Origin: a virus
Length of the DNA stretch: 55,962 nt
IMG/VR virus record: IMGVR_UViG_3300017971_000057
Reading direction: 5' to 3' (one strand)
A model generated the notes under the pieces. That model made no database searches, was not told the DNA's origin, and saw nothing but the letters and a program-made list of their open reading frames with translations. The position numbers and the translations under genes were made by a program. Numbering within the stretch: position 1 is the first letter of the stretch; each line of letters starts with the position of its first letter. Shown in pieces: positions 1 through 55,962 of this stretch.

Positions 1-123
1 CTCGCCCTTTTCCTGGCACAGAAAGGACAGGCGGGTGGACGAAACAAAAGAGCAGGCTATAGAGCTGTTGGCGATTCTATGGCGGGGGATCCCGGCGGAC
101 TACAAGAACCGCTACCGGATGAA
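1..123. repeat. Terminal overlap copy 1: identical to 55840-55962, so the contig is circular or terminally redundant
   Basis: Read directly: ctcgcccttttcctggcacagaaagg...gctaccggatgaa is present at both window ends, 123/123 identical. Confidence 0.95.
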
Positions 124-219
124 TATCTGGCAGCAGTTCGAGGATCAGCTCCGCAGCGCGGCCTACACGAGCAACCTGGACAGATGTGTCAGCTCGCTTT
201 GCCAGAAGTTGAGCTGTGA
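1..219 (+). CDS. csf1: 3' end of csf1. It continues the ORF that starts at 55261 and runs off the window end. The frame is preserved through the 123-bp overlap; stop TGA 217-219
   Basis: Frame 1 is open from position 1 to TGA 217-219. Position 55840 is a codon boundary of the 55261 ORF. The last ~60 codons overlap cas11 out of frame and look compositionally poor (G/R/P rich). Confidence 0.55.
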   Translation, partial: LALFLAQKGQAGGRNKRAGYRAVGDSMAGDPGGLQEPLPDEYLAAVRGSAPQRGLHEQPGQMCQLALPEVEL

Positions 220-409
220 CATCGGGCGCAATGCCGAGGATCGCGATCGCGCAGAGGCGATCTTGAATAGCGCGGATGGCAGCGCGATGCTCAGGTTGTT
301 GCGCGATCAAACCAAAGTGCTCGTGTTGCACGTGCGCGTGGCAAACCAAGAACGGCGCGCCGCGTGGGAAGCAGAGCACACTGACGAATGGGAGGCAGAA
401 TCAGAATGA
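35..409 (+). CDS. cas11: Cas11-like small subunit of a type IV-B effector (124 aa)
   Basis: GTG 35 is the first possible start in this frame, with aaagga 7 nt upstream. The protein is small and helix-prone (MDETKEQAIELLAILWRG...) and sits in the slot between csf1 and csf2. Its stop TGA 407-409 overlaps the csf2 ATG 406 (ATGA). The call rests on position and composition. Confidence 0.55.
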   Translation: MDETKEQAIELLAILWRGIPADYKNRYRMNIWQQFEDQLRSAAYTSNLDRCVSSLCQKLSCDIGRNAEDRDRAEAILNSADGSAMLRLLRDQTKVLVLHVRVANQERRAAWEAEHTDEWEAESE

Positions 410-1380
410 AAACCTACGTGTTTGAAGGCACAATGACGGCATTGACGAGCATCAGCCATATCGGCGACACGTTCGGTGTCAACGCGCGTTTGCGGCGCGA
501 AAAGATCGTCCAGCCAGACGGGAGCGTGGAAGAGATCCCAGTCATCAGCGGCAATGCCTTGCGCGGCATCTTGCGCGACCGGGGGATGCTGCATATGACG
601 CGGCAGCTTGGCTATGGCGAACCAGGCGAAGATGGCGTGCCTATTGGCATGTCGCTGGCCGCGTTCTACTTTTTGTTTTCCGGCGGCGCGCTGACCAAAG
701 ATGCCGGGCGCGGGCTGGACATCGATCTGGCGCGGCAGTGGCGTGAGCTGATCCCGCTTGTCGCGCTGTTTGGCGGCGCGATGGGCAACCAGATCATGCC
801 GGGCAAACTCAAGATTGGCAAGGCGATCCCGATCTGTAACGAGACAGCGCACATCTTGCCGGAGCGGTACGCGCAAGGCGAGATCAAGTCGGTGTGGGAT
901 TTTTGCCAAGAGGAAGCGTATACGCGGCGCGATGACGAAAAGAATGAGAACCTGCGCCAATTGATCGCGCCTGACGTTCGCGCTCTTTTGGAGGCCAGAG
1001 CCAGCATAGAACGGCAAAAGAGTGGCACAAAAGAGGATGTGGTGGTCGAGACCGGCCAGAAGCAGCAGATGCGCTACTTTGTCGAGACGCTGGCGGCAGG
1101 CACACCGCTCTTTTGGGATTTGACCCTGGACGATGCTACAGATCTCGAGTTTGAGGCGCTGGCCGTGACCCTGGCCGAGTTTGGCCGGCAGCCGTACATT
1201 GGTGGCAAGAGCGGCGTTGGACACGGCAAGGTTGCGATCCGATTTGATCAATGGATCGAGATCAACCCGCGCCTCGCGCCGGATGGCCGCGAGGTTGATC
1301 TGCCGCTTGGGTCGCGCTATATGGAGCACATCCAAGAGCACGGCGACGACATCCGGGGGCTGATCGATGGCCTATCGTGA
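406..1380 (+). CDS. csf2: Csf2 (Cas7-family RAMP backbone subunit, type IV)
   Basis: GGAGG 391-395 lies upstream of ATG 406. Motifs: VISGNALRGILRDRG, LFGGAMG, and the C-terminal glycine-rich loop YIGGKSGVGHGKV. Confidence 0.85.
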   Translation: MKTYVFEGTMTALTSISHIGDTFGVNARLRREKIVQPDGSVEEIPVISGNALRGILRDRGMLHMTRQLGYGEPGEDGVPIGMSLAAFYFLFSGGALTKDAGRGLDIDLARQWRELIPLVALFGGAMGNQIMPGKLKIGKAIPICNETAHILPERYAQGEIKSVWDFCQEEAYTRRDDEKNENLRQLIAPDVRALLEARASIERQKSGTKEDVVVETGQKQQMRYFVETLAAGTPLFWDLTLDDATDLEFEALAVTLAEFGRQPYIGGKSGVGHGKVAIRFDQWIEINPRLAPDGREVDLPLGSRYMEHIQEHGDDIRGLIDGLS

Positions 1381-2056
1381 TCGCTACGACCTGGAACCAC
1401 TGCGCGTGCGCGCCTGGCTGCGCAGCGGTGTAGTGGCGGATCGGCACTTGCCGTTAGATGGCATTCTGCTCTATCAGAATCATCGAGATGCGCTGGGCGC
1501 GCTAGAGATGACAGTACCGGGCGAGTACACCAACAATGCGCCTGTGGCGACACTGCCGCTGGGCATCCTGCACCCAGGGCATCGCCACTGGTACTATCAG
1601 TGTTCGTGGGCGCAGTGGTCGCACGAGGTCGAGGGTCAGGACTATTGGAACAAGCGATTCAGATCGCAGTTGGTGGATTTGGTGGATTTTGACCGGCGGC
1701 GGGGCAAGGTGATCATCGAGCAGGGCAAGTACAAGGCATATCACATGCCAGTGCTTTATCGCGCCGCGCTGTGGATTGAGTGGTACTGCATCGGCGACAA
1801 AAAAGAGATCGAGCACTTCCTGTCCACCGTCACGCACCTGGGCAAAAAGGCCGTACAGGGCTGGGGGCGCGTGGCGCGTTGGCAGATCGAACCGTGGTCT
1901 TGGGACTGGTCGGTTTGGCGGTCGGATGGTCGCTTGATGCGCGGCATACCACCAGAGGATCTAGACGGCCACGAGTTTGATCTGAATATCGGCAATTATG
2001 GTATACGGCCTAGCTACTGGAAGCGGGATAACCAGATGACGCTGGTGCTGCCGTAA
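1367..2056 (+). CDS. csf3: Csf3 (Cas5-like RAMP, type IV)
   Basis: Overlaps the csf2 end by 14 nt. N-terminal LPLDGILLYQ and glycine-rich loop HLGKKAVQGWGRVARW. Gene order fits. Confidence 0.7.
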   Translation: MAYRDRYDLEPLRVRAWLRSGVVADRHLPLDGILLYQNHRDALGALEMTVPGEYTNNAPVATLPLGILHPGHRHWYYQCSWAQWSHEVEGQDYWNKRFRSQLVDLVDFDRRRGKVIIEQGKYKAYHMPVLYRAALWIEWYCIGDKKEIEHFLSTVTHLGKKAVQGWGRVARWQIEPWSWDWSVWRSDGRLMRGIPPEDLDGHEFDLNIGNYGIRPSYWKRDNQMTLVLP

Positions 2057-2062
2057 GGAGGA

Positions 2063-2203
2063 ATGATGAAGAAAAAGTGGATTTGGTGCCAAGTGCAACT
2101 AGCGCGCTTGCGTTGGAATCTCTGGTTTTACGAGTCTTTGCTTATGGCGGCGCACCACTATGGCGAGCGGTATGCTGCTATTCGAAAGTCGCTCAATCAA
2201 TGA
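2063..2203 (+). CDS. Unlisted 46-aa ORF between csf3 and the cysH-like gene (MMKKKWIWCQVQLARLRWNLWFYESLLMAAHHYGERYAAIRKSLNQ)
   Basis: AGGAGG 2056-2061 lies directly upstream of ATG 2063/2066. Stop TGA 2201-2203 overlaps ATG 2200 of the next gene (ATGA). The alternative is that this stretch is the N-terminal extension of the 2077 GTG ORF. Confidence 0.35.
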   Translation: MMKKKWIWCQVQLARLRWNLWFYESLLMAAHHYGERYAAIRKSLNQ

Positions 2204-2949
2204 TGCCTGAAGAGGCCCGCGAGCGATTCGAGCTATACAGCCGACTGCGCCTGCACCGCTGGCGGGTGGCACAGGCGCAGCGGCGTGTGTCCGAGTGGCT
2301 GGCCCTGGTCGAGAATCCGTATATTGCATTTTCGACGGGCAAGGATTCAACGTGCGTGCTTGATCTGGTGCGTGAGCAGCGGCGGGAGACGCCAGCGGTG
2401 TATTTTGACGCGGGCTGCGCGTATCCCGAGAGCAAGGAGACGCTGACCAGCACGAAGAATGTGATCGTGTTTCCGACGCTGGAACCGTTGCTGGACACGT
2501 TCCGGCGCTATGGCGGGATCGAAGGTGGCCCGGCGCTAGAACGCGAGACGATGCGCACGACGGTGTATGAGCCAATTCGGCGGTTGATCGAGCAGTACGG
2601 GTTTGATGGCGTAGCGTATGGCCTGCGGGCAGAGGAGAGCCACGGACGACGGATGAATGCAAAGATGCGCGGCGCGGTGTTCCAATACAAGCGTGATGGG
2701 TTGTGGGGTTGCCAGCCAATTCACGACTGGACGTACAGTGACGTATGGGCCTATATCGTCACGAAGCGCCTGCCGTACTGTGGCGTGTACGACAAGATGT
2801 GGGATATGCCGGAAGCGGATCAGCGGCTATCCTACTGGGCGGGCAGCACCAAGCGTCGGTGGGGACGCTGGGCGTGGCTCAAGCGGAATTATATGGAGTT
2901 GTGGAATCGATTGGCGAGCGAATTTCCAGAAGTGAAGGGCTTTGTGTGA
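2200..2949 (+). CDS. cysH: PAPS reductase / PP-loop ATP pyrophosphatase family protein (the cysH-like gene typical of type IV-B loci)
   Basis: PP-loop AFSTGKDSTCVLDLV, YGLRAEESHGR, QPIHDWTYSDVWAYI. Start ATG 2200/2203 is coupled to the upstream small ORF; the ORF track offers an alternative GTG at 2077. Confidence 0.8.
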   Translation: MMPEEARERFELYSRLRLHRWRVAQAQRRVSEWLALVENPYIAFSTGKDSTCVLDLVREQRRETPAVYFDAGCAYPESKETLTSTKNVIVFPTLEPLLDTFRRYGGIEGGPALERETMRTTVYEPIRRLIEQYGFDGVAYGLRAEESHGRRMNAKMRGAVFQYKRDGLWGCQPIHDWTYSDVWAYIVTKRLPYCGVYDKMWDMPEADQRLSYWAGSTKRRWGRWAWLKRNYMELWNRLASEFPEVKGFV

Positions 2950-4030: not shown

Positions 4031-4126
4031 ATGAGCACATTTGATGATGATGGGCTACGATCCAGAGGAGGATACGCTGTACGTCAATCCCAAGTACACG
4101 ACCTGGATGGAGGCGGTATAGAATGA
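4031..4126 (+). CDS. Small ORF (31 aa, MSTFDDDGLRSRGGYAVRQSQVHDLDGGGIE)
   Basis: GGAGG 4021-4025 upstream of ATG 4031. Stop overlaps ATG 4123 (ATGA). Confidence 0.3.
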   Translation: MSTFDDDGLRSRGGYAVRQSQVHDLDGGGIE

Positions 4127-4353
4127 GATGTACAGTGTGTGGCGCAAAAGTGCCCGATGATCCGATCTACACTCGGACACGGGGACAGGTTGGTCTCTGT
4201 GATGAGTGCGCGGCTGACTTGGTGGACAGTCTACCCCCTCCAGAGCCGACTTGTGAGGGGTGTTCGCAATTCACAGGTCTCGAATGTCTGCTCGGTGGCC
4301 GGCTTCAGGCTGGCTGCCAGGGGCATCACGTTACCTCTGACGGCTCCCCTTGA
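4123..4353 (+). CDS. Zinc-ribbon protein (76 aa; CTVCG...CDEC)
   Basis: ORF track; translationally coupled to the upstream small ORF. Confidence 0.55.
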   Translation: MRCTVCGAKVPDDPIYTRTRGQVGLCDECAADLVDSLPPPEPTCEGCSQFTGLECLLGGRLQAGCQGHHVTSDGSP

Positions 4354-4379
4354 CATCTCCTTCCTTTCCGTGATATAAT
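4350..4379 (+). promoter_or_regulatory. Near-consensus sigma70-type promoter: TTGACA (4350-4355), 18-nt spacer, TGaTATAAT (-10 at 4374-4379)
   Basis: Hexamers read directly. An extended -10 TG is present. The -35 overlaps the stop codon of the last rightward early gene. Confidence 0.7.
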
Positions 4380-4385
4380 GACATC

Positions 4386-4566
4386 ACTAGCCGTCGTGAG
4401 ACGGCAGTTCTTCCATTCTCCTTTGGACAGCGCGGCGCATCATTGTCTCGTCGCCGGTCATCCGCCGCGCTGTCCTGCGGGCGGAGCATTGATAGTCATC
4501 ATAGACGCGCCACCAGACAATCAAACTGAGGCATCTACGGGCGGCACGGTTCACGTGCCGTTTTTG
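4386..4566 (+). ncRNA. Candidate ~180-nt structured transcript (late-operon leader or terminated small RNA)
   Basis: Bounded by the 4350 promoter and the 4542 terminator. Hairpins: CCGTC/GACGG at 4391-4404, and a perfect 13-bp stem GGACAGCGCGGCG (4425-4437) with CGCCGCGCTGTCC (4463-4475). The overlapping ORF 4378-4662 is compositionally implausible. Confidence 0.4.
4542..4566 (+). terminator. Intrinsic terminator (CGGCACG-gttca-CGTGCCG-TTTTTG)
   Basis: 7-bp GC-rich stem, 5-nt loop and T5 run, read directly. Confidence 0.7.
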
Positions 4567-4886: not shown

Positions 4887-5367
4887 GGAACTGACGGCGA
4901 TTGCCGAGCAGCTCACGGTGGATCAAATGCGGTTCGTCCAGGCGCGTCAAGAGCACAATACAGACAAGGCCGCTGCTGAGAGCTTGGAGATCAGCCCGGA
5001 CACCATCAAGTCGTGGAAACGCAAAGGCTACCCGATTGATAGGGCTTGCGAGTTGATGGCTCAGGATGGGCTGATATTCGCGGCCTCTGTTCGTCGCAAG
5101 AACCTCCTCAAGGCGATGCTAGTCAAGGTCGCGGGCCTGGACAGCGACGACGAACGACTGAGGCAAGCCGTCTCGACTGAAATCGTCGAATGGGAGATGG
5201 GCAAGGCTACGCAGACGCAACGCCACGAGGGCACCGGCGAAGGGGGCGCGATTGTCGTCCAGAATGTAGAGCTAACGGATGCTGAACGTAGAGACGCTCT
5301 TAAGGGAATGTTCGGACTATCAGCGGACGCTCACAGACCGGACGCTGATCGGGACGATCAACCCTGA
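4837..5367 (+). CDS. terS: Terminase small subunit (HTH)
   Basis: Sits directly upstream of terL. HTH-like LTVDQMRFVQARQEHNTDKAAAESLEISPDTIKSWKRKG. Confidence 0.6.
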   Translation: MSETNQSVEIHESQLTEELTAIAEQLTVDQMRFVQARQEHNTDKAAAESLEISPDTIKSWKRKGYPIDRACELMAQDGLIFAASVRRKNLLKAMLVKVAGLDSDDERLRQAVSTEIVEWEMGKATQTQRHEGTGEGGAIVVQNVELTDAERRDALKGMFGLSADAHRPDADRDDQP

Positions 5368-6628
5368 CCAGCACTATGCACCACGAGGCAATGCCGGGCG
5401 CGTCCTGTTCAACACGGATCGTGAGCTGGTCGTCTCGGGGCCAGCAGGGACCGGCAAATCGAGGGCGTGCCTGGAAAAGCTGCACTACTGCTGCAACACC
5501 TATCCCGGAACACGCGCGCTGATCGTGCGACAGACGCGCGCCAGCCTGAGCGAGACCGGCCTGGAAACGTTCGAGAACCACGTGCTAGGGCCCTTGCATC
5601 CGATGGCTCTGGACGGCCCCAAGCGGCCCTGGCGCTCCTCCTACCGCTACCCGAACGGCAGTCAGATCAACATCGGCGGGATGGACAAGCCGGCGCGCAT
5701 TTTGTCCAGCGAGTATGATCTGATCTACTGGCAACAGGCCGAAGAGGGCAGCCTGTGGGGCTACGAAACTTTGCTCACCCGCTTGCGGGGTCAGGGGATG
5801 CCCTTCCGGCAGATGCTTGCCGACTGCAACCCAGAGAGCCCGATGCACTGGCTCAAGCAGCGCTGTGACAAGGGGCAGGCGACGCTCCTGGAGACCCGGC
5901 ACACAGACAACCCGGTGCTTTGGGACAGCGCGCACGGCGAGTGGACCGAGTCCGGGGAAGAGTACATCGGCACGCTCGACCGGCTGACCGGGGCCCGCAA
6001 GCTGCGGTTGCGGTATGGCGTCTGGGTCGTGTCCGAGGGCGCGATCTACTCGCTCTTTGACGAGGAGCGGCACAAGGTGCGCGGGTTCAAGCCGCCGGCG
6101 CTCTGGCCAAGGATCGTCGCCATCGATCCGGTGGGCGCGATGATCGGAGCGCTCTGGATGGCGTTCGATCCGACGGCGCGGGTGCTGAACGTCTACCGGG
6201 AGTACCTGGAGCCCTATGGTGCCCCGACCGGGCAGCACGTCCGGAACATCTTGAGACTGAGCCAGGGCGAGACGGTCTTTGCCTGGGTCGGCGGCGGGCC
6301 TTCCGAGCGACAAGCGCGCACCGATTGGCAGGCGCACGGCATCCCCCTGGGCGAGCCTCCCAACATCGGGGTTTGGTCGCAGATTGACCGGGTGATCGAG
6401 CTGCTGCGTGATTTCAAGATCGTGATTCACGACACGTGCCCGCAGCTCTTGAGTGACGTGGGCAGCTATCGGCGCAAGGTGATCCACGGCCAGCCGACGG
6501 ACAACATAGAGGATAAGGACGTGTTTCACCTTGCGGACTGCCTACGCTATGGCGTCGCCTTTTTGGCTGAACCCCACGAGCGCGTACAAGTTGTCGACCG
6601 CCTGGCGTCCATCGGCGGGAATTGGTAG
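5279..6628 (+). CDS. terL: Terminase large subunit
   Basis: Walker A VVSGPAGTGKSRA, ATPase plus C-terminal nuclease-like region, ~450 aa. The start is uncertain because of an 88-nt overlap with terS. Confidence 0.9.
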   Translation: MLNVETLLRECSDYQRTLTDRTLIGTINPDQHYAPRGNAGRVLFNTDRELVVSGPAGTGKSRACLEKLHYCCNTYPGTRALIVRQTRASLSETGLETFENHVLGPLHPMALDGPKRPWRSSYRYPNGSQINIGGMDKPARILSSEYDLIYWQQAEEGSLWGYETLLTRLRGQGMPFRQMLADCNPESPMHWLKQRCDKGQATLLETRHTDNPVLWDSAHGEWTESGEEYIGTLDRLTGARKLRLRYGVWVVSEGAIYSLFDEERHKVRGFKPPALWPRIVAIDPVGAMIGALWMAFDPTARVLNVYREYLEPYGAPTGQHVRNILRLSQGETVFAWVGGGPSERQARTDWQAHGIPLGEPPNIGVWSQIDRVIELLRDFKIVIHDTCPQLLSDVGSYRRKVIHGQPTDNIEDKDVFHLADCLRYGVAFLAEPHERVQVVDRLASIGGNW

Positions 6629-6637
6629 GAGAGACCT

Positions 6638-6832
6638 ATGCCCAATAACCTGATCTCATTCGCCGTCCAGACCGAGGCCGGTCCGGTGCGCTTCTTTGAG
6701 GCCAACCGGGTGCGCGTGCGTCGCGGGCGGCTCGTATTCCTGGTCGGCCTGTGGCGCGTGGTGGGCATCATCGAGCGCGGGCACTGGCTGCGCGTGATGG
6801 CCGGCATCGCACCGGAGGACATCGGACAATGA
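6638..6832 (+). CDS. Hypothetical small protein
   Basis: ORF track; stop overlaps the portal ATG 6829 (ATGA). Confidence 0.4.
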   Translation: MPNNLISFAVQTEAGPVRFFEANRVRVRRGRLVFLVGLWRVVGIIERGHWLRVMAGIAPEDIGQ

Positions 6833-8562
6833 ATCGAAAAGGCCAGCTATGGCGCGGGGTGGACGTACAGCTCCAGGAGCGGCAGCGCGCACGTGAGGCC
6901 GTCCTGGAGACCTGGAGATGGGCCGAGACCGATGCGCCCCTCTCGCGCATTCAAGAGCACGTCCAGGCGCTCTCTGAGTACGACGAGGAGTACCTGGACC
7001 TGATGGTCCAGGATTTGCTCTGGGACTACATCGGCGCGCAGGAGACCAGCCTGGAGCGCGAGCGCAAATGGGCGATCAAGATATCTCGCCAGGCGTGGCG
7101 CTCCCAGTCCCCCTTGGCACAGTGGGCGGTGTGGACCTGGACCGCCTGGGGCATCGGGGACGCGGTGCAGGTCAGCGCCGAGGACGAGGCCAATGGCCAG
7201 CCGGTCCTGGACGAGTTCTGGAACGCGGACCGCAACGCCGCGCTCTTGGGCCAGGATCACCTTGATTCCCTAAGCGAGCGTGTCCTGGTGGACGGCAACG
7301 CGTTCTTGGCATTCTTTGCTTCCACGGTGGACGGCCTCGCCACCGTGCGGAACGTCCAGCAAGACGCGATCGAGATCGTCGCCAATCCCGAGGACGCCTT
7401 GACGCCCTGGTTCTACAAGCGCAGCCGGGTGACGGGAGAGGGTGACCCGACCGACCTCTACTATCCCGACTGGGCGCTCTACTGCGGCGGGGAGGACGCG
7501 GCGATCACGGTGGACGAGGCGTGGCAGACGCTCCAAGATCAGCGCAAAGTCCCACGCGATGCCCGGCGTGCCGATCAGGTGCGCAATGGCCAGCAGCTCG
7601 GCGGCATCGAGACCGGCCCCGGCACGGCGGTCTGCATGCTCCACATCGCCCACAACCGCAAGGATCTGGACAGCCTGTGGGGCTGGCCGCTCCTGACCGT
7701 GGCCCTGCCCTGGCTGCGGACGCACAAGCGCTTTGCGCAGGCCCGTTTCACCGTGGCGCTTTCGGTCGCGCAGTTCGTGCGCCGGTCGCGGGTGCAGGGC
7801 GGATCGCGCGCCGTCCAGTCCGTGATCGACACCATCGCGTCTAATCTGTCGCAGAGCCAATTCACCGACACCAACCCGCCGGCAGCGCCCGGTTCGTGGC
7901 ACGTCGAAAACCGCGCCGTCGAGACGAGCGAGCTTCCGATGAGAACCGGGGCCAGCGACGCCGAGGCGGATAACAAGCTGTTTGCGTGGATGGCCGGCCT
8001 GGGCGCGGGCTTGTTTCCCACCTCGCTGGGCCTGGACGCCTCGCGCTGGGCAACCGCCGTCGAGATGGACAAGGTACAGAGCTACTTGTTCTCCAAGTAC
8101 AAGCGGTTCTGGTCGGCGCAATTCCGGCGCGTGGCGCGGATCGTGTTCTCGTTCGCAGAGCAGTATGGAAGCGTGACGCTCCAGTCCACAGATGCAGAGG
8201 TCAGCATTGATTCCTACTCGCTGCCCGATTTCCCGCCGATGGTGGACGCGAGCAGCAAGCTGATGGCCAGCCTGCACGAGGCGGCGGGCCTGGGCATCAT
8301 CCCGGCGGGCGCCGTGGCCGCGATTGACGCCGCCCTCGTGCGGCCTGCCCTGCAAGCGATAGGCGCCGATCAGTTCGCAGAGCTGACCAGCGACGAGGCG
8401 TTCGGCGTAACTGGACGAGAGCAAGGGCAACAGGAGGCACAGTCAGCACTGAGGCGCATTGCCCTGAATTTCGCAGAGGGGTCAATAGACTTGGACCAAC
8501 TGGCCGAGTGTGTTATAGCAGAGGTGGTTGAACAAAAGGCGTCTCTGATGGTGGGCAAATAG
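6829..8562 (+). CDS. Portal protein
   Basis: ~577 aa ORF immediately after terL. ATG 6829 preferred over the track start 6751 because of the ATGA coupling. Confidence 0.7.
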   Translation: MNRKGQLWRGVDVQLQERQRAREAVLETWRWAETDAPLSRIQEHVQALSEYDEEYLDLMVQDLLWDYIGAQETSLERERKWAIKISRQAWRSQSPLAQWAVWTWTAWGIGDAVQVSAEDEANGQPVLDEFWNADRNAALLGQDHLDSLSERVLVDGNAFLAFFASTVDGLATVRNVQQDAIEIVANPEDALTPWFYKRSRVTGEGDPTDLYYPDWALYCGGEDAAITVDEAWQTLQDQRKVPRDARRADQVRNGQQLGGIETGPGTAVCMLHIAHNRKDLDSLWGWPLLTVALPWLRTHKRFAQARFTVALSVAQFVRRSRVQGGSRAVQSVIDTIASNLSQSQFTDTNPPAAPGSWHVENRAVETSELPMRTGASDAEADNKLFAWMAGLGAGLFPTSLGLDASRWATAVEMDKVQSYLFSKYKRFWSAQFRRVARIVFSFAEQYGSVTLQSTDAEVSIDSYSLPDFPPMVDASSKLMASLHEAAGLGIIPAGAVAAIDAALVRPALQAIGADQFAELTSDEAFGVTGREQGQQEAQSALRRIALNFAEGSIDLDQLAECVIAEVVEQKASLMVGK

Positions 8563-17896: not shown

Positions 17897-19018
17897 ATGA
17901 GAAAGTTTCTTTCACTCCTTGCGGACATCCGCAAGGCACAACTGAGCGAACGGGGCGCAAGCGGCGAGCGGCTGGGCAAGGTCGATGTTCTCTTCCGAGA
18001 GATGGACCGCCAGCTCGATTGGCGCGAACCGCCTGCTGAGAACGAGCAGCTTGCCGAGACCTTGGTCTCTGCCGACTTTCCCTATGCGTTGGAGGAGTAC
18101 GTCAACCGTGAGATGGTGGCGGGCTATCAGCGCAAGGGCTTTGCTTTTGAGCCGTTGGTCTACAACGATACCCTGAGCAACTTCCTCCCGCATACCCGCT
18201 ACCAGAACCGCTGCGGGTTCGACGACCTGGAATACGTCGGCCAGAAGGGCCAGGCGCGACCGGGTTCCATCCAGGATGCCACCAAGCGCCAGTACCAGGT
18301 CTATCGCTGGGAGAAGCAGATCGATTTCTCCTACGAAGCCCTGGTGAACGACGACCTCGGCTACCTGGAGGACACGGTGCGCCTGATGGGCGAGGCGGCC
18401 CGGCGCACGCTGGAAAAGTTCGTCTCGCGGATGTACACCAACGCCGTGAGCATCGCGGCTTTGACCGCTTTGGGCGTGCTCTACTCGCAGACCGGGCGCT
18501 TGACCACGGCCCGCATCAGCGAGGCGCGGATGGCGTTCAACCAGCGCACCGACGCGTGCTCTGAACCGATCAACGCCCGGATGGATCACCTCGTGATCCA
18601 CAGCGGCCTGGTGGACACGGCGCGGCAGATTCAGGCCAGCGAACTGGTGCCAGAACTGGCGACCAACGCGGCCAACATCGTCCGCCCGTTCAACTGGATC
18701 GAAGACCCGTACATCACGGGCACGGCGCCGAACCTGCCCTGGTGGGCGTTCAGCGTGAGCAACAACATCCGTCCGTTCGTGCTGGCGAGGCTGCAAGGCT
18801 GGACTGGCCCACGCGTGGCGCGCAAGCGCAGCGATATGGAGTTTGTCGGCTCGATGCTGGGCGGTGGGGCCCAAGCGCCCGCGATTATGGGCGACTTTGA
18901 CACCGGCAACGTTGTGCTCAAGGTGGTAGACATCTTCGGGACGTACATCGGTGGCACGGGCAACGGCAACTACTTCGACCTGCGCGGCGGCTACTACAGC
19001 GCCGGCACCGCGCCCTAG
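17897..19018 (+). CDS. Major capsid protein candidate (373 aa)
   Basis: Size and position after the scaffold, with strong GGAGCAATGAGATG start context. The fold was not verifiable by eye. Confidence 0.6.
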   Translation: MRKFLSLLADIRKAQLSERGASGERLGKVDVLFREMDRQLDWREPPAENEQLAETLVSADFPYALEEYVNREMVAGYQRKGFAFEPLVYNDTLSNFLPHTRYQNRCGFDDLEYVGQKGQARPGSIQDATKRQYQVYRWEKQIDFSYEALVNDDLGYLEDTVRLMGEAARRTLEKFVSRMYTNAVSIAALTALGVLYSQTGRLTTARISEARMAFNQRTDACSEPINARMDHLVIHSGLVDTARQIQASELVPELATNAANIVRPFNWIEDPYITGTAPNLPWWAFSVSNNIRPFVLARLQGWTGPRVARKRSDMEFVGSMLGGGAQAPAIMGDFDTGNVVLKVVDIFGTYIGGTGNGNYFDLRGGYYSAGTAP

Positions 19019-30467: not shown

Positions 30468-33284
30468 ATGCAAAAAGAAGGCGTAATCCTCGCCGTCGAG
30501 GGCGCAAGCCAATTCATTACGCAAATGAAGGCCGCTGGACAAGCGGTTGACGGATTTGGAAAGGCGGTCGGGGGAAGCGCAAACGCAGCAAAGCTCCAAA
30601 CCTGGGGTGCTTCTCTCGCGACAGTTGGCAGCGCACTCCAAAATCTAACGGGATTGGGCGGCGGAATTGCCCAATTGGGCGGCAAAATGGGCAGCCTCGG
30701 GCAACTCGCCGGGGTTGCGACCAAATATCTAGGTGCTGCTGGCCCAGCCATTGCGGGCGTGGGCGTGGCGGCAGCCGGATCAATCGCGGCTTTGGGTGGG
30801 GCTGCGGTAGGCGTCGCGGCGTTGGGCAAGAAAATGGCCGAGCTCGCACAACAGACCGCGCCAATCCAGGGCTTAGACTTCCAGTTCCGCACGCTGACCC
30901 AAGAGATCGAGGGTGGCAGCGGGGCCATGCTCAGCGCGTTACAACGCTCTTCCAGCGGGATGATTGCCAACCGCGACTTGATGCGCTCCTACAACGACGC
31001 GGCGGCCCTCGTCAATCGACAGTTTGCCGAGCGCTTGCCGGAAGCGCTGGGCCTGCTGGGCAAGGTATCGGCGGCAACCGGCACCGATATGAATTACCTG
31101 CTAAATAGCCTCGTCACCGGCGTGGGGCGTGTGTCCCCGATGATCCTGGATAATCTCAAAATCCAGGTCGGCGTAGCAGAGGCGACCGCTAAGGCGTCTG
31201 AGATGTTCGGCAAAGAGGCCGACCAACTGACCAAGGTTGAACAGCAAACCGCACTCACCGAGCTGGCCCTGGCCAAGCTCGAAGAAAAGTTTGGTGCATT
31301 GCCGGACATCAGCGAGACGGCAGGCGCTCAGATGGCAATGCTACAAGCTAATTTCCAGAACATCAAGGACACGCTGGGCCAGTTCCTCCTACCTGCGTTC
31401 ACCTCGTTCCTGCAAGGCGTCAACGCGCTGACCGGCGCATTCTCAGCGGCGATCAGCGAGGGCGGCGCATTCTACCCGCTCCTGGTCAACCTGGGCGCGG
31501 TGCTCGCCCTGGTCGGCGATGGATTCAGAGACCTGGCAGATCGAGCCGCGCACTGGCTGGGCAACCTGGACGCCGACTGGACGGCGCGAATGGGCGGGAT
31601 GGCTGCGAGCGCGATCCAATGGGGCGCGGACCTCGTGACCAATTTCGCCGTGGGCATCCTGGACGCGGCGAACACCGTCCTGACCTGGGCGATGAACCAG
31701 ATCGGTAACATCCTGTCCTGGTGGCTTGCACCGGGCAGCCCGCCCAAAGTGGCGCCCGACCTCGACAAGTGGGGCATCGCGGCGTTCGAGTCATTTTTGA
31801 AAGGGATGACCGAGGCGGACTTTGGCGTGCTCGAGTCGGTGCAGGGGCCGCTCAAAAAGGCGCTTGAAGGGCCGGCCTTTGCCGACGTGAGCAAGGCGCT
31901 TTCCGGCGCGCTGGCGGGCGGCGACCGGGCCGGGGCGCTCAACATCCTGGCCAAATCCTCCGAGCAGTTCGGAGACGACATCGCGGAATTGGCGCGGCGC
32001 GAGTTTGCCCTGGCCGATGCGACCGACGCCGTGGCCGTGGCAGAGCAAAAGCTGGCCGACGCACAAGAGCGGGCGGTGCGCACCAATCAGCGAGTGAGCG
32101 CCGAGACCGCCAAGTACAACCAGATGTTGCGCGAGGGGGCCAGCGAGCAGGCGTTACAGGCCCAGCTCGCCCGGATCAACGCCGCCGAGGAAGAGGCCAA
32201 CGTGGCGCGCAAAGAGGTGGGCGCCGCCGAGACGGGCGTGGACGCCGCCAAAGAGCAGGTGGACGCGCTCAAAGAACAAGTCGAGTGGCAGCAGCGATTT
32301 CTACAGCAGCTTTTCGGCATTCAAGACGCGCTGACCGAGCAGGAACGGCGGGGCAGCGGAGCAGGCAAGGGGGCTGTGATTCCGGGTCTACCCGAGGGCG
32401 CGCTTCGACCGGCAGCCGGGGGTATCGGCGGGGCGATTGCCCAGGCGATTGAGGACGCCAAGGGGCGGATCAAGACCAGCCTGGGCGGCATCTGGCAGAC
32501 CATCAAAGAAGAGTTTTCCGACAAGTGGGACGCCGCCATCGCAAAACTAGGTGGGACCTGGACCGAGTTCAAGGACACGGTCGGCGAGGCGTGGGACACG
32601 CTCAAGGAAAAGTACCCGTTCTTGCAAAATGTAGAGGATTGGCTCGTTGACAACATTCCGGTAGTCAAACAGATGATTGTCGAGGCGTGGGACCCGCTGA
32701 CAGAATCGCTTGGGGGTCTCTACAGCGAAATCAGTGACAACCTGCTCGGCGTACTGACCGGAGACCAAAGCCTGCTTGAGGCATTCCAGAACGTGCGAGA
32801 CTACATCAAGGACACGTTCATACCCGAGATTTTAGGTGAGGATGGACTAGGCCCAATCTTGCAGTGGTTCAAGGACGAGGTGATCGACCCGCTGGCAACG
32901 GGCATTGACACGATGTACCAAGCGCTCAAAAACTCGGACACATGGCTGGGCAATTTGATCAAGCGAATCGAGGGGATGGGGCCGGGATTCTGGGACAAGA
33001 TCAAGTTCCTGGTCGGCCAATCGCCCTCCCCGCTGGCCATTGGCATCCAGACCGCCGCCGATGCAATGGAGCGAATGGCGCGGGTGAGTATTCCGCAGCT
33101 CCAGGGCGCGATGACGTTTCAGCCGGCAGGGATGGGGTCCTCTTTCCGGCCGGCGGGGAGCGTGACCAACCAGACGGCAAACTCGTTCAGCTTTGACACG
33201 ACGGTGAACAGCGGCATAGACGCGGTGGCATTCGAGGCGATGATCTTGCGCACGGTGCGCAGGGCGCTGGCAGGAGCGGCATAG
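30468..33284 (+). CDS. Tail tape measure protein (938 aa)
   Basis: Gly/Ala-rich hydrophobic N-region, long coiled-coil-like Ala/Glu/Gln-rich stretch, size and position. Confidence 0.85.
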   Translation: MQKEGVILAVEGASQFITQMKAAGQAVDGFGKAVGGSANAAKLQTWGASLATVGSALQNLTGLGGGIAQLGGKMGSLGQLAGVATKYLGAAGPAIAGVGVAAAGSIAALGGAAVGVAALGKKMAELAQQTAPIQGLDFQFRTLTQEIEGGSGAMLSALQRSSSGMIANRDLMRSYNDAAALVNRQFAERLPEALGLLGKVSAATGTDMNYLLNSLVTGVGRVSPMILDNLKIQVGVAEATAKASEMFGKEADQLTKVEQQTALTELALAKLEEKFGALPDISETAGAQMAMLQANFQNIKDTLGQFLLPAFTSFLQGVNALTGAFSAAISEGGAFYPLLVNLGAVLALVGDGFRDLADRAAHWLGNLDADWTARMGGMAASAIQWGADLVTNFAVGILDAANTVLTWAMNQIGNILSWWLAPGSPPKVAPDLDKWGIAAFESFLKGMTEADFGVLESVQGPLKKALEGPAFADVSKALSGALAGGDRAGALNILAKSSEQFGDDIAELARREFALADATDAVAVAEQKLADAQERAVRTNQRVSAETAKYNQMLREGASEQALQAQLARINAAEEEANVARKEVGAAETGVDAAKEQVDALKEQVEWQQRFLQQLFGIQDALTEQERRGSGAGKGAVIPGLPEGALRPAAGGIGGAIAQAIEDAKGRIKTSLGGIWQTIKEEFSDKWDAAIAKLGGTWTEFKDTVGEAWDTLKEKYPFLQNVEDWLVDNIPVVKQMIVEAWDPLTESLGGLYSEISDNLLGVLTGDQSLLEAFQNVRDYIKDTFIPEILGEDGLGPILQWFKDEVIDPLATGIDTMYQALKNSDTWLGNLIKRIEGMGPGFWDKIKFLVGQSPSPLAIGIQTAADAMERMARVSIPQLQGAMTFQPAGMGSSFRPAGSVTNQTANSFSFDTTVNSGIDAVAFEAMILRTVRRALAGAA

Positions 33285-47411: not shown

Positions 47412-48682
47412 GGTAGTGTGTCAAGTTCTGTGTAAAAGGGGTCCAGGCTAGGCAGCGGTCTTGGGCATCGATATCCTTCGGAACTTCATACTTCGTACGA
47501 TAGCATAGAACATTAACAAGCAACTGTTTTCGTTTCGGAAGGCCGTCGCCATCTTTTTGGTGCGTCGCTTGACCTCATTGTACAGCCGCTCGATGACGTT
47601 GGTCGTGCGGATCGTCTTCCAGTGCGCCTTGGGAAAGGCGTAGAAGGTCAGGCAAGCCTCCAAATCGCGTTTCAGGCAGGCCACGGCCGACGGGTAGATC
47701 GGTTCGAACTTCTCACAGAAGGCAGCTACCTCTTGGTCGGCCGCTTCACGATTCTTCTGGTAGAAGATCGCCCGCAGCTCCGCTCGCACGGGCTCGCGCT
47801 GCTTGTTGGGTACGTAGCCCAGCACATTATCCATCTTGTGCTTGACACACCGCTGTCGCGGGCTGTCCGGGAACTTGAGCTCCAGGGCATTGATCATGGC
47901 TTGGTTGCCATCGGTGATCCATAATCCGACCGTTTTGACCCCGCGGGTCTTGAGATCCTCCAAGAGATTCTCCCAGGCCGTTTGGTTCTCCCGATCGCCA
48001 ATGGTGAAGCCTAACACCTCTCGTTGGCCGGTGACGTTGATGCCGATCACGGCCAGGATGGGCATCTTGTGACCTTCACCATCGTAGATTACCGTAAAGT
48101 AGGTCCCATCGGCAAAGGCGTATTCGTAGTGCTCTTCGAGTGGTCGCGTCTTCCAGGCCTCATACTCTCCTTCCAGGGTGTGGAACACCCGAGACACGGT
48201 GGACGGGCTGGGCTTGGAGCCTGTCAAGGATTCGACCACCTCGCCGGCCTTGCGGGTGCTGACGCCGCCAACGAACATATCACCGATGGCGTTGTCCAAC
48301 TCGGCCCGGCGGCGCTTGTACTTCTCAAAGACCTGGGTCTGATGTCCATTGCGCGTACGCGGCACCGACAGGTCTTCGAGCAGACCGACTGTCGTATCTA
48401 GATCGCGTGTGTAATATCCATTTCGATAATCGCGCCGCTCAGGTGTGCGCTCGTAGGGCAAGGCCCCGACCAGGCCGCTGACCTCTTCCTCCAGGATCGT
48501 GACCAGCGTCAACCGCACGGCCATACGGATCTGTTCCTGGAGCAAGGACTGGAAATCGTTTTGACTCAACGCTTCAACTGTAGTATTCTTCTGTCTGGGA
48601 GCCATGGTGTCCTCCTTGGTTAGTTTTGCCGCTACCAAGGATACCTGGTTCCCACTTTTTACACAAAAATCAGTATACTACC
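47412..48682 (-). mobile_element. IS256-family insertion sequence (1271 bp) with ~37-bp imperfect terminal inverted repeats
   Basis: Ends GGTAGTGTGTCAAGTTCTGTGTAAAAGGGGTCCAGG and (reverse complement) GGTAGTATACTGATTTTTGTGTAAAAAGTGGGAACCAGG, a single Mutator-type transposase gene, and an 8-bp TSD. Confidence 0.9.
47448..48605 (-). CDS. IS256-family (Mutator-type) transposase
   Basis: Family-typical blocks [62 protein letters not shown] 6 nt upstream of ATG 48605. Confidence 0.9.
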
Positions 48683-50958: not shown

Positions 50959-51237
50959 CTAACCCAAATCTACCTCGCGCACGCGGAACGTGCGCGTGCA
51001 TGCTCCCGCCTCGTCCATCTCTTCCGGGGAGAGATCTTTCCCTCGCTGTTCTGGCCGGAGAAAGGGGAGATCGATAGTGGTTACGCTGGCGGCACAGGAG
51101 GCCAGCGCCAATGGTAGGTGGCCGATAACGTCCTCCCCGCGAATATCGTCTACGGTCGCGTGAACAATCACGCGGCCCTCGATGCCGCGCTGCTTGAGCC
51201 ATTCGATGGCTCCGGCGTGTCTTGAGATAATCAACAT
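50959..51237 (-). CDS. csx16: Csx16-like (Cas_VVA1548 family) small protein
   Basis: 92 aa. MLIISRHAGAIEWLKQRGI...IRGEDVIGHLPLALA...LPFLRPEQRGKDLSPEEMDEAGA...FRV matches the remembered family pattern (RHxGAxEW, GDxVIGxLP, RGxxLSxEE). Confidence 0.6.
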   Translation of the reverse strand: MLIISRHAGAIEWLKQRGIEGRVIVHATVDDIRGEDVIGHLPLALASCAASVTTIDLPFLRPEQRGKDLSPEEMDEAGACTRTFRVREVDLG

Positions 51238-51280: not shown

Positions 51281-51325
51281 CGCCGGGCTATTCTACAGCC
51301 CGCCCGGCTGGGCGGTGGGGGCTAG
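51281..51325. repeat. Direct repeat copy B (29 bp exact, ~45 bp imperfect), starting at the stop codon of the pentapeptide gene
   Basis: cgccgggctattctacagcccgcccggct is identical at 51281-51309 and 52191-52219. It contains the hairpin GCCGGGC/GCCCGGC. Confidence 0.9.
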
Positions 51326-52056
51326 TCCTTCGTGATGGAGCGCAGATGATAGCGCTCCACCCCTGTCCAGAGATTGGCCTCCCCGGCCAGGAGGCCCTGG
51401 ATTTCTTTTGCGCCGCCGCACTGGACGCGGCAGATGTGGTAGAGCAACTGGCGAAACCGATCCAGGTCAATGCCCACGTCAAATGAGCCGCTCTGGAGCG
51501 GCCAATTTACAAAGTCCAGGCGGGCTCCGCTCAAATCGGCCTCGCGCAGGTCAGTCCCGCGCAAGTCGGCCTGGCAGAGGCCGACCCCGTACAAGTCGGC
51601 CCAGCGCAGGTCGGCCCTGCGCAGGTCGGCCTCGGTCAAATCGGCCTCGGCCATGCTGGCCCTGAGCAGGTTGGCCCTGCTCAGGTTGGCCTCGTGCAGG
51701 TTGGCCCTGCTCAGGTCGGCCTGGCGCAGGTCAGCCCCGCTCAGGTCAGCCTCGCTCAGATCGGCACCGCGCAGGTCAGCCCCGCGCAGGTCGGCCCTGG
51801 TCAGGTCGGCCCTGGTCAGGTCTGCCTCGCCCAGATCGGCACCGCGCAGGTCGACCTCGGCCAAGCTGGCACCGCTCAGGTTGGCCTCGTACAGGCTGGC
51901 CCCGCTCAAGTCGGCCTCGCTCAGGTTGGCCCCACGCAGGTTAGCTCTGTTCAGCCAAGCTCCGCTCAAGTCGGCCTTGCTAAGGTCAATCTCGCTCAAG
52001 TTGACCTTGCTCAAGTCGGCCCTGCTCAGATCCGCATCGCTCAAGTACTTTATCAT
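51322..52056 (-). CDS. Pentapeptide-repeat protein (about 35 tandem A(D/N)LxG-type repeats plus a ~55-aa C-terminal domain)
   Basis: ADLSRADLSKVNLSEIDLSKADLSGAWLNRANLRGANLSEADLSG... read from the ORF track. Confidence 0.9.
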   Translation of the reverse strand: MIKYLSDADLSRADLSKVNLSEIDLSKADLSGAWLNRANLRGANLSEADLSGASLYEANLSGASLAEVDLRGADLGEADLTRADLTRADLRGADLRGADLSEADLSGADLRQADLSRANLHEANLSRANLLRASMAEADLTEADLRRADLRWADLYGVGLCQADLRGTDLREADLSGARLDFVNWPLQSGSFDVGIDLDRFRQLLYHICRVQCGGAKEIQGLLAGEANLWTGVERYHLRSITKD

Positions 52057-52190: not shown

Positions 52191-52240
52191 CGCCGGGCTA
52201 TTCTACAGCCCGCCCGGCTTGGGCGATGGGGGAGGCTAGG
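52191..52240. repeat. Direct repeat copy A, starting at the stop codon of gene 52236-52649
   Basis: See copy B. The copies are exactly 910 bp apart. Confidence 0.9.
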
Positions 52241-52649: not shown

Positions 52650-52775
52650 TGTATCCTCCGCTCCGTTTTGGTGTCGGCTCCAGCTTGAGCCGCTATGTGG
52701 CCTGCCATCGTCAGCACCGGGCGGCCAGTCCCGGCGGACCGGGCGTATGCCCGGTTTCGGCTACTCGGAGGAGAA

Positions 52776-52945: not shown

Positions 52946-52974
52946 TTGACGCAGCCTAGCGGGTGTGATAGAAT
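52946..52974 (+). promoter_or_regulatory. Rightward promoter: TTGACG (52946-52951), 17 nt, TGaTAGAAT (-10 at 52969-52974)
   Basis: Read directly. Confidence 0.65.
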
Positions 52975-54175: not shown

Positions 54176-54957
54176 ATGCCTGTGCCATTTATCTCCACAA
54201 CTGGACCGCGTGAGGCAACGCGAGTTGGCGCTGAGACTGAGGTCAAGATCCCGCGACAGACCTGGTTGATGATGAGTCTCGTCTTAATGCTCGTCGATGT
54301 CGGCCTGTGGTCTATCGGATGCCTGGTTTGGGCACGTGCTCGCGCCAAGTCGGTCGGATATTGGCGCTGGTTGAATTACGAGTGGTCGCCCTGGTTCGCG
54401 CTGGAATGGCCCTGGTTCGCGGTGACGATTATCCTATGCTGGATTGGCCCATCGGCGGCATCGTATCTATATCGGCTGGCGATTGAGCTGCTGGCGCGCA
54501 CTACGCCGCTCTATGATAATATGAGTCCCGATGACGGTATCTGGAATCCGCTCGGCCGGCGGCGATACGAGGAGGAGCCAGAGGAGGAGATGGAGAAAAC
54601 CGCCGAGACCGTCGATCTGAACCTGTGGGACCAGCCCAAAGACGGCAAGCGTCGCCGCCGGCGAACGTTGCCTGACTTTCTCGTCAGCACCCAGGCGCGG
54701 TCGTTCTATCGCGCTGTGGCCAATGGCGGCGCTGAATTCTCAGAGCGAGAGGCGCGGCGATACGGCATCAAGCGGCGTGAATTCAGGCAGAATATCCGCG
54801 ATGCGCTGCTAGATCGCAGGATGGCCGACTGGAAGGACGAGCAGCATAAAAATCTCGGCGTTTCATTGTCCCCCGATGCGCTGAGAACGTTGGAATTGCT
54901 GGGTAGGAACCCCCTGCCCCAGAGAAGTGCGCAGGGAGTGCGCAAAAGCGCATCCTG

Positions 54958-54958
<1 letters not shown>
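54176..54958 (+). CDS. Membrane-anchored protein with a basic/winged-helix-like C-terminal half
   Basis: ORF track; TM helices in residues ~30-100. Confidence 0.5.
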
Positions 54959-54992
<34 letters not shown>

Positions 54993-55260: not shown

Positions 55261-55962
55261 ATGATATGCCGGATCTGTGGCAACAGGGCCGTGAAAGGCC
55301 AGCCGTTCGATGAGTGGGTACGCCCCACATTTACGGATTGGGATAAGCTCGTCCCTGGTGACGCCATTTGCTCTGATTGCTTATTTTGGTTTGAGGAGCA
55401 GTCGGAGGAATTGGCGCGGCGAGTAGGGAAGGAAAAGCCGCAACGGATGCGGAATTATAGCCACTTTATTGTTGCGGGAGAGTGGATACCTCTCTCGAAA
55501 GGCGACAAAGGCAGAATGCAAGTTTTGCTACTTGGTGAGCCTTTCCCCGAACTGGCCGCTATCGCAATGAGCGGCCAAAAGCACATCGCGTTTCGGGCGC
55601 AGCGCAACCCACCCGACGCTAAAGCGGGTTGGGTGCAAGTGGAGGAGCAGGCGCTCTACCTGAACCCGGAGGAACTGCGCTCGCTGCTGTGTGCTGTGGA
55701 GGCGTTGTACACGGGATTCAGCAAGTCAGAGATTGAGACGGGCGACTATGCCGGGTATCGTATCCTGAAGTATGGCCTGGAAGAGTGGCAGGCGCTAGAG
55801 ACCGAGGTCGCGCCGCAGCGCGGCAGTCTGCTCTTCGCCCTCGCCCTTTTCCTGGCACAGAAAGGACAGGCGGGTGGACGAAACAAAAGAGCAGGCTATA
55901 GAGCTGTTGGCGATTCTATGGCGGGGGATCCCGGCGGACTACAAGAACCGCTACCGGATGAA
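55261..55962 (+). CDS. csf1: Csf1 (type IV large subunit, zinc-ribbon N-terminus); continues across the circular junction to 219 (265 aa in total)
   Basis: MICRICGN...GDAICSDCLFWF, with CxxC at residues 3-6 and 37-40. No stop before the window end. Lies directly upstream of cas11-csf2-csf3. Confidence 0.7.
   Translation, partial: MICRICGNRAVKGQPFDEWVRPTFTDWDKLVPGDAICSDCLFWFEEQSEELARRVGKEKPQRMRNYSHFIVAGEWIPLSKGDKGRMQVLLLGEPFPELAAIAMSGQKHIAFRAQRNPPDAKAGWVQVEEQALYLNPEELRSLLCAVEALYTGFSKSEIETGDYAGYRILKYGLEEWQALETEVAPQRGSLLFALALFLAQKGQAGGRNKRAGYRAVGDSMAGDPGGLQEPLPDE
55840..55962. repeat. Terminal overlap copy 2 (identical to 1-123)
   Basis: See copy 1. Confidence 0.95.

Follow-up and report, generated by a model that had tools for sequence, protein, structure and literature searches.

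A subtype IV-B CRISPR-Cas effector cassette that lacks an array and has a long csf1/cas11 overlap, in a tailed-phage genome

The cassette and the genome that carries it

We analysed a stretch of viral DNA of 55,962 nucleotides (nt), the IMG/VR record IMGVR_UViG_3300017971_000057, which in its whole length is referred to here as the window. The subject of the analysis is a group of genes on the same strand that lies across the junction of the two ends of this stretch, namely csf1, cas11, csf2, csf3 and a cysH-like gene. An earlier note, made from the sequence alone, had described them as an array-less subtype IV-B CRISPR-Cas effector operon, and we hold it as nearly certain that they represent an intact and selected IV-B effector set, accompanied by a co-directional cysH-like gene. 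All five genes were found at the positions given in that note, each supported by profile hidden Markov models (HMMs), by matches in the PDB or by structure search. Precisely, the profile search that it had proposed, for Csf1, Csf2, Csf3, Cas11 and PAPS_reduct, gave a match for every one of the five (Table 1).

The csf1 open reading frame (ORF) encodes 265 amino acids (aa) and occupies positions 55261..55839 and then 1..219. Since positions 55840-55962 repeat positions 1-123, the frame continues at window position 124 after 55962. The double CxxC zinc ribbon previously noticed in Csf1 corresponds to four cysteines (C3, C6, C37 and C40) that are invariant in 71 homologues. No sequence match for Csf1 was found in the PDB. 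An AlphaFold2 model based on the 71-homologue alignment had a mean predicted local distance difference test (pLDDT) score of 85, about 95 for residues 1-204, and the only convincing matches of this model in Foldseek were the type IV-A Csf1 chains 7XG1_A and 8RC3_G (probability 1.0 and 0.99, respectively, with a template modelling score of about 0.4).

The cas11 gene has a GTG start with AAAGGA ahead of it. Its product, which matches the Cas11_1_IV profile over its full length, is only weakly similar to the Cas11 of 7JHY (E=0.023), and it represents the small subunit that is absent from IV-A. For Csf2, the top PDB match was the type IV-B Csf2 of 7JHY (E=6e-27), and Csf3 matched the type IV-A Csf3 7XFZ_B (E=2e-5). 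In Csf2, the residue that corresponds to Asp42 of the Mycobacterium protein, where a catalytic role is putative, is Asp21. We did not retain it as a conserved catalytic residue, since an acidic residue (D or E) holds this position in the majority of the relatives and A, N or Q in three of them, and this variability makes a cleavage of target RNA doubtful.

No CRISPR array was found in the window, in which the only family of tandem or interspaced repeats is the pentapeptide-repeat gene. None of Cas6, DinG, RecD, Cas10, Cas1, Cas2 and Cas4 was found among the 74 other ORFs of the window (Pfam E<1e-4, PADLOC E<1e-5), an ORF set incomplete for small genes, in which a small protein could be overlooked and a large one could not. 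The same families were missing from the ENA gene calls around the cassette. Hence the repeat scans and the profile searches agree with the earlier note on the lack of an array, cas6, dinG and cas1/cas2, and the subtype IV-B call stands on both the genes present and the genes missing.

Table 1. Features of the window that are discussed in the text, with the evidence for each
Feature	Position	Strand	Evidence
csf1 (Cas8-like large subunit), 5' part	55261..55962	+	PADLOC Csf1_0_IV E=2e-25, aa 3-201
csf1 3' end, C-terminal tail aa ~205-265	1..219 (stop codon 217-219)	+	ORF across junction
cas11 (type IV small subunit)	35..409	+	PADLOC Cas11_1_IV E=1e-28, profile 3-121/122
csf2 (Cas7 backbone)	406..1380	+	Csf2_0_IV E=3e-82; TIGR03115 E=3e-16, under NCBI's equivalog cut-off
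csf3 (Cas5)	1367..2056	+	Csf3_0_IV E=7e-52; TIGR03116 E=2e-15
Predicted dual-coding overlap, csf1 tail frame and cas11 frame (+1 relative to csf1)	35..219 (185 nt)	+	Sequence statistics
cysH-like PP-loop gene (CasCysH)	2200..2949	+	PF01507 E=2e-19
Perfect sigma-70 promoter, ~180-nt structured leader and terminator hairpin	4350..4566 (promoter 4350-4379, hairpin 4546-4566)	+	Fold z = -3.2
Csx16-family gene (Cas_VVA1548), 92 aa, leftward early operon	50959..51237	-	PF09652 E=2.3e-17, 63.4 bits (cut-off 25), profile 2-90/91
Pentapeptide-repeat gene, leftward early operon, directly ahead of the Csx16-like gene	51322..52056	-	PF00805 E=8e-66; 15-nt periodicity
Rightward early promoter-like site, TTGACG-17-TAGAAT with TG	52946..52974	+	Consensus match only
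Terminal direct repeat	1..123, copy 55840-55962	.	Exact identity; independent contigs span junction

The two copies of the terminal direct repeat are identical over 123 bp, which indicates that the window represents a genome of 55,839 bp, either circular or terminally redundant. The junction is read through, with 99.8-100% identity, by a linear ENA contig of 38,137 bp (ERZ27256798) and by a Logan contig (SRR6963591); since these are two independent assemblies, the join is no artefact of a single one and the circular junction that had been claimed is confirmed. The ENA contig joins DnaB, both early operons, the Cas cassette and the terminase genes. As for the possibility, raised in the earlier note, that the Cas block had been misassembled onto the phage block, both assemblies show the same joins.

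The window is a complete tailed phage with double-stranded DNA (Caudoviricetes), with terminase, portal, HK97-type capsid and tail genes and closed ends. The carriage by a phage is borne out by the genes for packaging and structure (large terminase 5279-6628, portal 6751-8562, capsid/protease 17897-19018, tape-measure protein 30468-33284) and by those for replication on the minus strand (primase, DnaB and an O-like initiator), together with the terminal repeat. Further genes encode a Gp3-like recombination directionality factor, a DNA methyltransferase and a transposase of the IS256/Mutator family, the last of which lies within the replication module, between the O-like initiator and the early genes (47448-48638, minus strand, PF00872 E=2e-94). 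We found no tRNAs in the window and no DNA similarity to cultured phages among 50,697 records. The GC content at third codon positions (GC3) of the cassette genes, 0.69-0.73, is inside the phage's own range.

On one side of the cassette are rightward early or regulatory genes, on the other the genes for packaging. The rightward early promoter-like site precedes it, with no convincing terminator between them, and a perfect late-type promoter is found downstream of it, so that its placement behind the 52946 promoter in the rightward early operon, as had been described, agrees with the map. A perfect (ACGC)x8.8 microsatellite occupies positions 54958-54992, between the stop of the gene 54176-54958 and the small ORF that precedes csf1; no gap interrupts the alignment with the ENA assembly at this point, hence the copy number is equal in both.

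The overlap of csf1 and cas11

The Csf1 profile stops near residue 201 and the ORF runs about 60 codons further, into cas11 and in another frame. This arrangement is common in the related loci: the 3' end of csf1 covers the first ~60 codons of cas11 in nearly all the members of the clade, and in 23 of 25 loci it extends out of frame into cas11 by 173-245 nt. As a test of openness, each Cas11 N-terminus was back-translated at random with the local codon usage. The Csf1 frame was open in a mean of 4% of these random back-translations, corresponding to a joint P of ~2e-42 under the assumption of independent loci. Within the overlap, the amino-acid identity in the Csf1 frame was 42%, against the 27±0.6% expected from the conservation of Cas11 alone, and the synonymous third positions of cas11 had an identity of 0.51 inside the overlap and 0.33 outside it. 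Taken together, these statistics argue that the overlap is real coding sequence, beyond what chance would give. RNA structure was considered as a source of the extra constraint and rejected, the consensus fold being only -1 kcal/mol.

In the Csf1 tail five residues are at least 90% conserved among the 71 homologues. The pLDDT of the tail in the AlphaFold2 model is 40-65, and for this reason the tail is probably disordered on its own; we infer that it may serve as a flexible peptide through which Csf1 docks to another subunit or to the product of the cysH-like gene, CasCysH.

Elsewhere, the csf1/cas11 overlap is of 4 nt in the Rhodococcus plasmid pRHL2 and of 14 nt in the Skermania phage SPI1, and there is none in pRHL3, compared with 185 nt in the window, so the long overlap is specific to the clade of the window. 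It has also a practical consequence. In the ENA gene calls for the same phage (the ERZ27256798 contig) csf1, csf2, csf3 and cysH are present and cas11 is omitted, because it starts inside csf1; Cas typing based on such gene calls may under-call or mis-score the IV-B loci of this clade as missing the small subunit.

The out-of-frame overlap would be a clean case of dual coding in a Cas operon. In type I systems cas11 is reportedly translated from within the large-subunit gene (McBride et al. 2020), and there, likewise, the coding of the small subunit starts inside the 3' end of the gene for the large one. The difference is in the frame: the internal cas11 of type I is in frame, from an internal start, whereas the cas11 of the window is in the +1 frame, so that one DNA sequence would give two different peptides.

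Related loci, the cysH-like gene and the early region

A search with Csf2 retrieved 22 IMG/VR viral contigs, with 55-90% identity, and four contigs of metagenome-assembled genomes (MAGs), assigned to Anaerolineales, Chloroflexi, Ardenticatenaceae and, for one contig of 2.7 kb, to a Brevinema bin. The host is, tentatively, probably a bacterium of the Chloroflexota. With Csf1 as query we obtained 356 protein clusters, and in nearly all of the best 120 the match extends over 90% or more of the query. When the ±10-kb flanks of the related loci (indicated by L and a number below) were clustered all against all, only the cassette genes were widely common. The flanks carry terminases (in 8 cases), portals, major capsid proteins, integrases and, commonly, ParB-type DNA methyltransferases; the presence of phage genes in flanks that are otherwise unlike indicates that the carriers of the cassette are diverse phages.

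The closest relative, L001, is homologous to the window at the DNA level (81.5%) from position 55264, at the beginning of csf1, to position 2052, at the stop of csf3, where the homology is abruptly lost. In this comparison the ratio of non-synonymous to synonymous substitution rates (dN/dS) was 0.14 for cas11, 0.08 for csf2 and 0.10 for csf3, and the neighbouring cysH-like genes were only 42% identical. These bounds, together with the divergent cysH, show that the four-gene block is swapped as a unit and that its cysH partner is replaceable. The comparison indicates that the csf1-csf3 block moves between unrelated phage backbones under strong purifying selection. A mobile and highly conserved IV-B cassette is thus part of the regular gene content of a large group of phages from the environment. 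Two relatives (L021:6372-6920 and L022:178-726) have csf1, cas11 and a csf2 cut to ~180 aa, with no csf3 or cysH and then unrelated genes, a case of cassette decay from which it follows that the cassette can be lost.

The cysH-like protein of the window matches PAPS reductases in the PDB (E=2e-7). In the related loci a gene of this type stands 3' of csf3 in 22 of 26 cases, and in these 22 cassette-linked homologues the S-x-GKDS of the PP-loop is invariant, conservation is also seen for the cysteine of WxCxP and for the motif (F/Y)PE(A/V)RxYV near the C-terminus, and the C-terminal ECGLH cysteine was found in none. CasCysH has been described as a likely ATP alpha-hydrolase without the catalytic cysteine, not as a sulfonucleotide reductase (PMC8175902), and the motifs found here match that description. 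About 8-9 relatives have an extra small gene of the helix-turn-helix (HTH) type, HTH_23 or LuxR/GerE, between csf3 and cysH (for example L003:11654-11974, L005:11587-12189 and L004:3037-3591), which may be a regulator of the cassette and which is absent in the window.

The leftward early operon, divergent from the one in which the cassette lies, contains the Csx16-like and the pentapeptide-repeat genes that the earlier note had listed; the first was confirmed by a full-length PF09652 match and by the ENA gene calls and the second by its PF00805 match. On the basis of the profile, the former is a full-length member of the Csx16/Cas_VVA1548 family, with a predicted ring-nuclease activity. Csx16 was shown to be a ring nuclease specific for cyclic tetra-adenylate (cA4) for a cellular member of the family, and few phages carry it (2 of the 28,114 genomes of cultured phages; PMC12409355). 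Compared with the viral ring nucleases (AcrIII-1/Crn2) and with cellular Csx16, the gene of the window is thus a full-length Csx16 family member with a putative ring-nuclease activity. A homologue 37% identical to it is present in a cassette-bearing relative, 1.8 kb upstream of csf1 (L016:6944-7216), and Csx16 is encoded by two more IMG/VR contigs, for which the flanks examined did not contain a Csf cassette.

A pentapeptide-repeat gene also adjoins the cysH-like gene of the plasmid IV-B locus of Rhodococcus jostii pRHL3 (L028, locus 294-2380). We considered a link between such genes and IV-B and discarded it: no such gene was seen beside the cassettes of pRHL2, pBD2 or the phage relatives, so the pRHL3 neighbourhood is probably a coincidence. 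In the window this gene is flanked by two direct repeats of 41 nt, 88% identical (51281-51321 and 52191-52231), each of which starts right after the stop of a leftward early gene and holds a GCCGGGC/GCCCGGC hairpin.

The leftward early operon has a type II hammerhead ribozyme in its 5' leader (52696-52762, minus strand; Rfam RF02276 over the full model, 52.9 bits versus a gathering score of 37, E=4e-8), ~90 nt downstream of a promoter-like site (52882-52854); the gene 52649-52236 follows it closely. As a processing partner of the cassette the ribozyme was rejected, since Rfam gave no match of any kind in seven cassette-bearing relatives.

Possible function and comparison with known systems

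As an explanation of the whole, we suggest that the cassette would be transcribed along with the early genes and would form a type III-like ribonucleoprotein filament, with Csf2 as the backbone, Cas11 as the minor filament and Csf3 and Csf1 as the caps, the Csf1 tail possibly serving as the flexible dock mentioned above. This filament would assemble on RNA from outside an array of its own, as the Mycobacterium IV-B complex does, and with the PP-loop enzyme CasCysH it would serve the phage against the RNA-guided immunity of the host. Most likely, in this scheme, host CRISPR RNAs (crRNAs) or other small guide RNAs would be captured or disabled, and the Csx16-family ring nuclease, alongside, would break down cA4, the molecule with which type III CRISPR systems signal. 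We consider this explanation, identity and working together, to be slightly on the probable side; the counter-defence mechanism as such is tentative, its chance being somewhat short of even.

Counter-defence is favoured because a Csx16 gene is present in the same phage, because another one is near csf1 in L016 and because the flanks of the relatives commonly hold methyltransferases of the anti-restriction type. The position of the cassette among early and anti-defence genes, with a homologue of a ring nuclease in the same phage, would narrow its roles toward phage-host or phage-phage conflict. The idea of an RNA sponge is already present in the literature (PMC8175902, PMC7038947).

Several points weigh against counter-defence. 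A plain RNA sponge would not obviously need a conserved Csf1, Csf3 and CasCysH, and a multi-protein anti-CRISPR was judged unlikely by Pinilla-Redondo et al. The co-occurrence of Csx16 with the cassette, in 2 of ~25 loci, is suggestive only. Early expression is derived from gene order and consensus promoter matches only, and the predicted translation of the Csf1 tail from sequence statistics. The host is an uncultured organism. Moreover, we know of no IV-B system that has been tied by experiment to a phenotype.

A more specific form of the proposal is that of a phage-specific IV-B variant in which the dual-coded Csf1 tail would link the filament to Cas11 or CasCysH, the whole acting as an anti-CRISPR against host crRNAs, especially those of type III, which would be captured or chemically disabled, in combination with the Csx16-family ring nuclease. 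We regard it as unlikely in all these particulars; if true, it would be the first biological role for subtype IV-B.

Another explanation, also improbable in our opinion, is that the Csf complex borrows its guides, i.e. that it loads crRNAs of the host or of a phage mini-array and binds or silences rival phages, plasmids or host genes in the manner of IV-A. Conservation extends to all four subunits of the complex, and among them to the Cas5-like Csf3, whose normal task is to read the crRNA handle; CRISPR systems encoded by phages are, in addition, often directed against other phages (PMC12676247). Moreover, a mini-array accompanies a IV-B locus of the Fuxivirus (PMC10848311), and one of our loci, L007 (IMGVR_UViG_3300029288_007089), has at positions 936-1195, 7.7 kb upstream of csf1, four repeats of 37-40 nt (GTTGCAACCGTCAACCTCCGGAGGTGGAGGGTGCTAG) with spacers of 32-34 nt. 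However, L007 is the exception, no array having been found in the window or in the other 25 of the 26 related loci; its spacers have no match among the sequences examined, and its repeat occurs in that phage only among the viral and metagenome collections. In addition, no partner of the helicase or nuclease type is present, the Mycobacterium complex ignored the I-E crRNAs that were expressed together with it (PMC7937560), and in the literature IV-B co-occurs negatively with other CRISPR systems.

We attach a rather low probability to the view that the cassette is a modification machine, in which CasCysH would be the effector, adenylating or modifying RNA or DNA on a scaffold represented by the Csf filament, so that nucleic acid of the phage would be marked or protected or host RNA altered. 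The constancy of the cysH-like gene after csf3 speaks for it, as do the invariant S-x-GKDS, the conserved WxCxP cysteine with no sulfonucleotide-reductase cysteine, the near-invariant association of cysH with IV-B in general (literature) and the DNA methyltransferases among which the cassettes of the relatives lie. On the contrary, cysH is far more divergent among the loci than the Csf genes (28-50% versus 55-90% identity) and is swapped between near-identical csf blocks, which argues against a tight, co-evolved interface between CysH and Csf, and no substrate is known.

The earlier note had also proposed that the Csf complex could be loaded with an RNA encoded by the phage, for instance the 4386-4566 transcript. 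Near the cassette, 1.4 kb downstream of cysH, there are indeed a perfect sigma-70 promoter (TTGACA-18-TATAAT with TG, at 4350-4379), a structured RNA of ~180 nt (fold z = -3.2) and a terminator. However, the 4386-4566 region is unique to the phage of the window, the 26 related loci containing no homologue of it, and it has no credible match to an Rfam family, for which only sub-threshold hits to miRNA models were obtained. A hidden guide or handle motif near the cassettes was likewise looked for and rejected, since no non-coding k-mer of 12-16 nt occurs in more than five loci and the GC-rich 12-mers seen fit chance. Furthermore, the element lies directly upstream of the small terminase gene. 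In phage lambda, the PR'/6S region is a late leader under antitermination control, and by analogy the 4350-4566 element reads more simply as a late-operon leader of this kind than as a partner RNA of Csf. Hence the proposed loading is not borne out and we judge it very unlikely. An ORF for a 76-aa zinc ribbon (4123-4353) ends at the -35 box of the 4350 promoter; its product could be an antiterminator.

Finally, that the cassette is a decaying passenger, as in the two relatives with a truncated csf2 and no csf3 or cysH, or a plasmid-phage assembly chimera is hardly credible, given the intact cassette ORFs of the window with dN/dS of 0.08-0.14, the more than 350 clusters of Csf1, which among the best 120 are nearly all full length, the same joins in two independent assemblies and a GC3 within the range of the phage.

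Most of what is known of IV-B comes from plasmids of actinobacteria, and occasionally it has been seen in prophages (PMC7038947). The earlier note had set its carriage by a phage against the plasmids on which it is mostly described. The carriage itself holds, but its novelty was overstated, because IV-B sets with cysH and, apart from a mini-array in the Fuxiviridae, with no array have already been published on complete viral genomes, those of the Fuxiviridae (PMC10848311) and of a 41-kb Methanoperedens virus (10.1101/2023.08.02.551345); the cassette of the window therefore adds to a known kind of system and is not a new kind. The sets of these archaeal Fuxiviridae and of Mp_virus_41kb resemble that of the window in having IV-B effectors and a cysH-like gene. 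They differ from it in that the Fuxivirus locus has a mini-array, none being found in the window, and in that the clade of the window appears to be bacterial, tied to Chloroflexota MAG contigs, and much larger than the published virus-borne sets.

The IV-B complex of Mycobacterium sp. JS623 (7JHY; PMC7937560) has the same csf1, cas11, csf2 and csf3, with no array and no Cas6, and it binds heterogeneous RNA of ~55-60 nt (PMC7937560). It is the top PDB sequence match for both Csf2 and Cas11 of the window, with low identity. The Mycobacterium system is on a megaplasmid, whereas that of the window is in a phage and has the Csf1 tail of ~60 aa over cas11. The IV-B loci of the Rhodococcus plasmids pRHL2, pRHL3 and pBD2 share with the window csf1, cas11, csf3, a gene of the PAPS-reductase family and a homologous Csf2 (31-37% identity between the Csf2 of the window and its plasmid homologues, 76 plasmid records). 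In these plasmids cysH is divergent and upstream, whereas in the window it follows csf3 on the same strand.

What is new here is the size and coherence of the phage clade, the exchange at the level of the cassette, the predicted dual coding of csf1 and cas11 and the pairing with Csx16; Al-Shayeb et al. 2022 may list such loci. To our knowledge, IV-B is the one widespread CRISPR-Cas subtype without a known function, and one cultured relative may be of use in this respect. Among 50,697 cultured phages, only the Skermania phage SPI1 (L027, KR011061.1, 32609-36242) has a homologue of Csf2. Its Orf40-44, all annotated as hypothetical, have the same order csf1-cas11-csf2-csf3-cysH, with a co-directional cysH as in the window, where Csf2, Csf3 and CysH were matched by tblastn and Orf40 and Orf41 were assigned by position only. 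The SPI1 cassette could thus give a tractable model for the function of IV-B.

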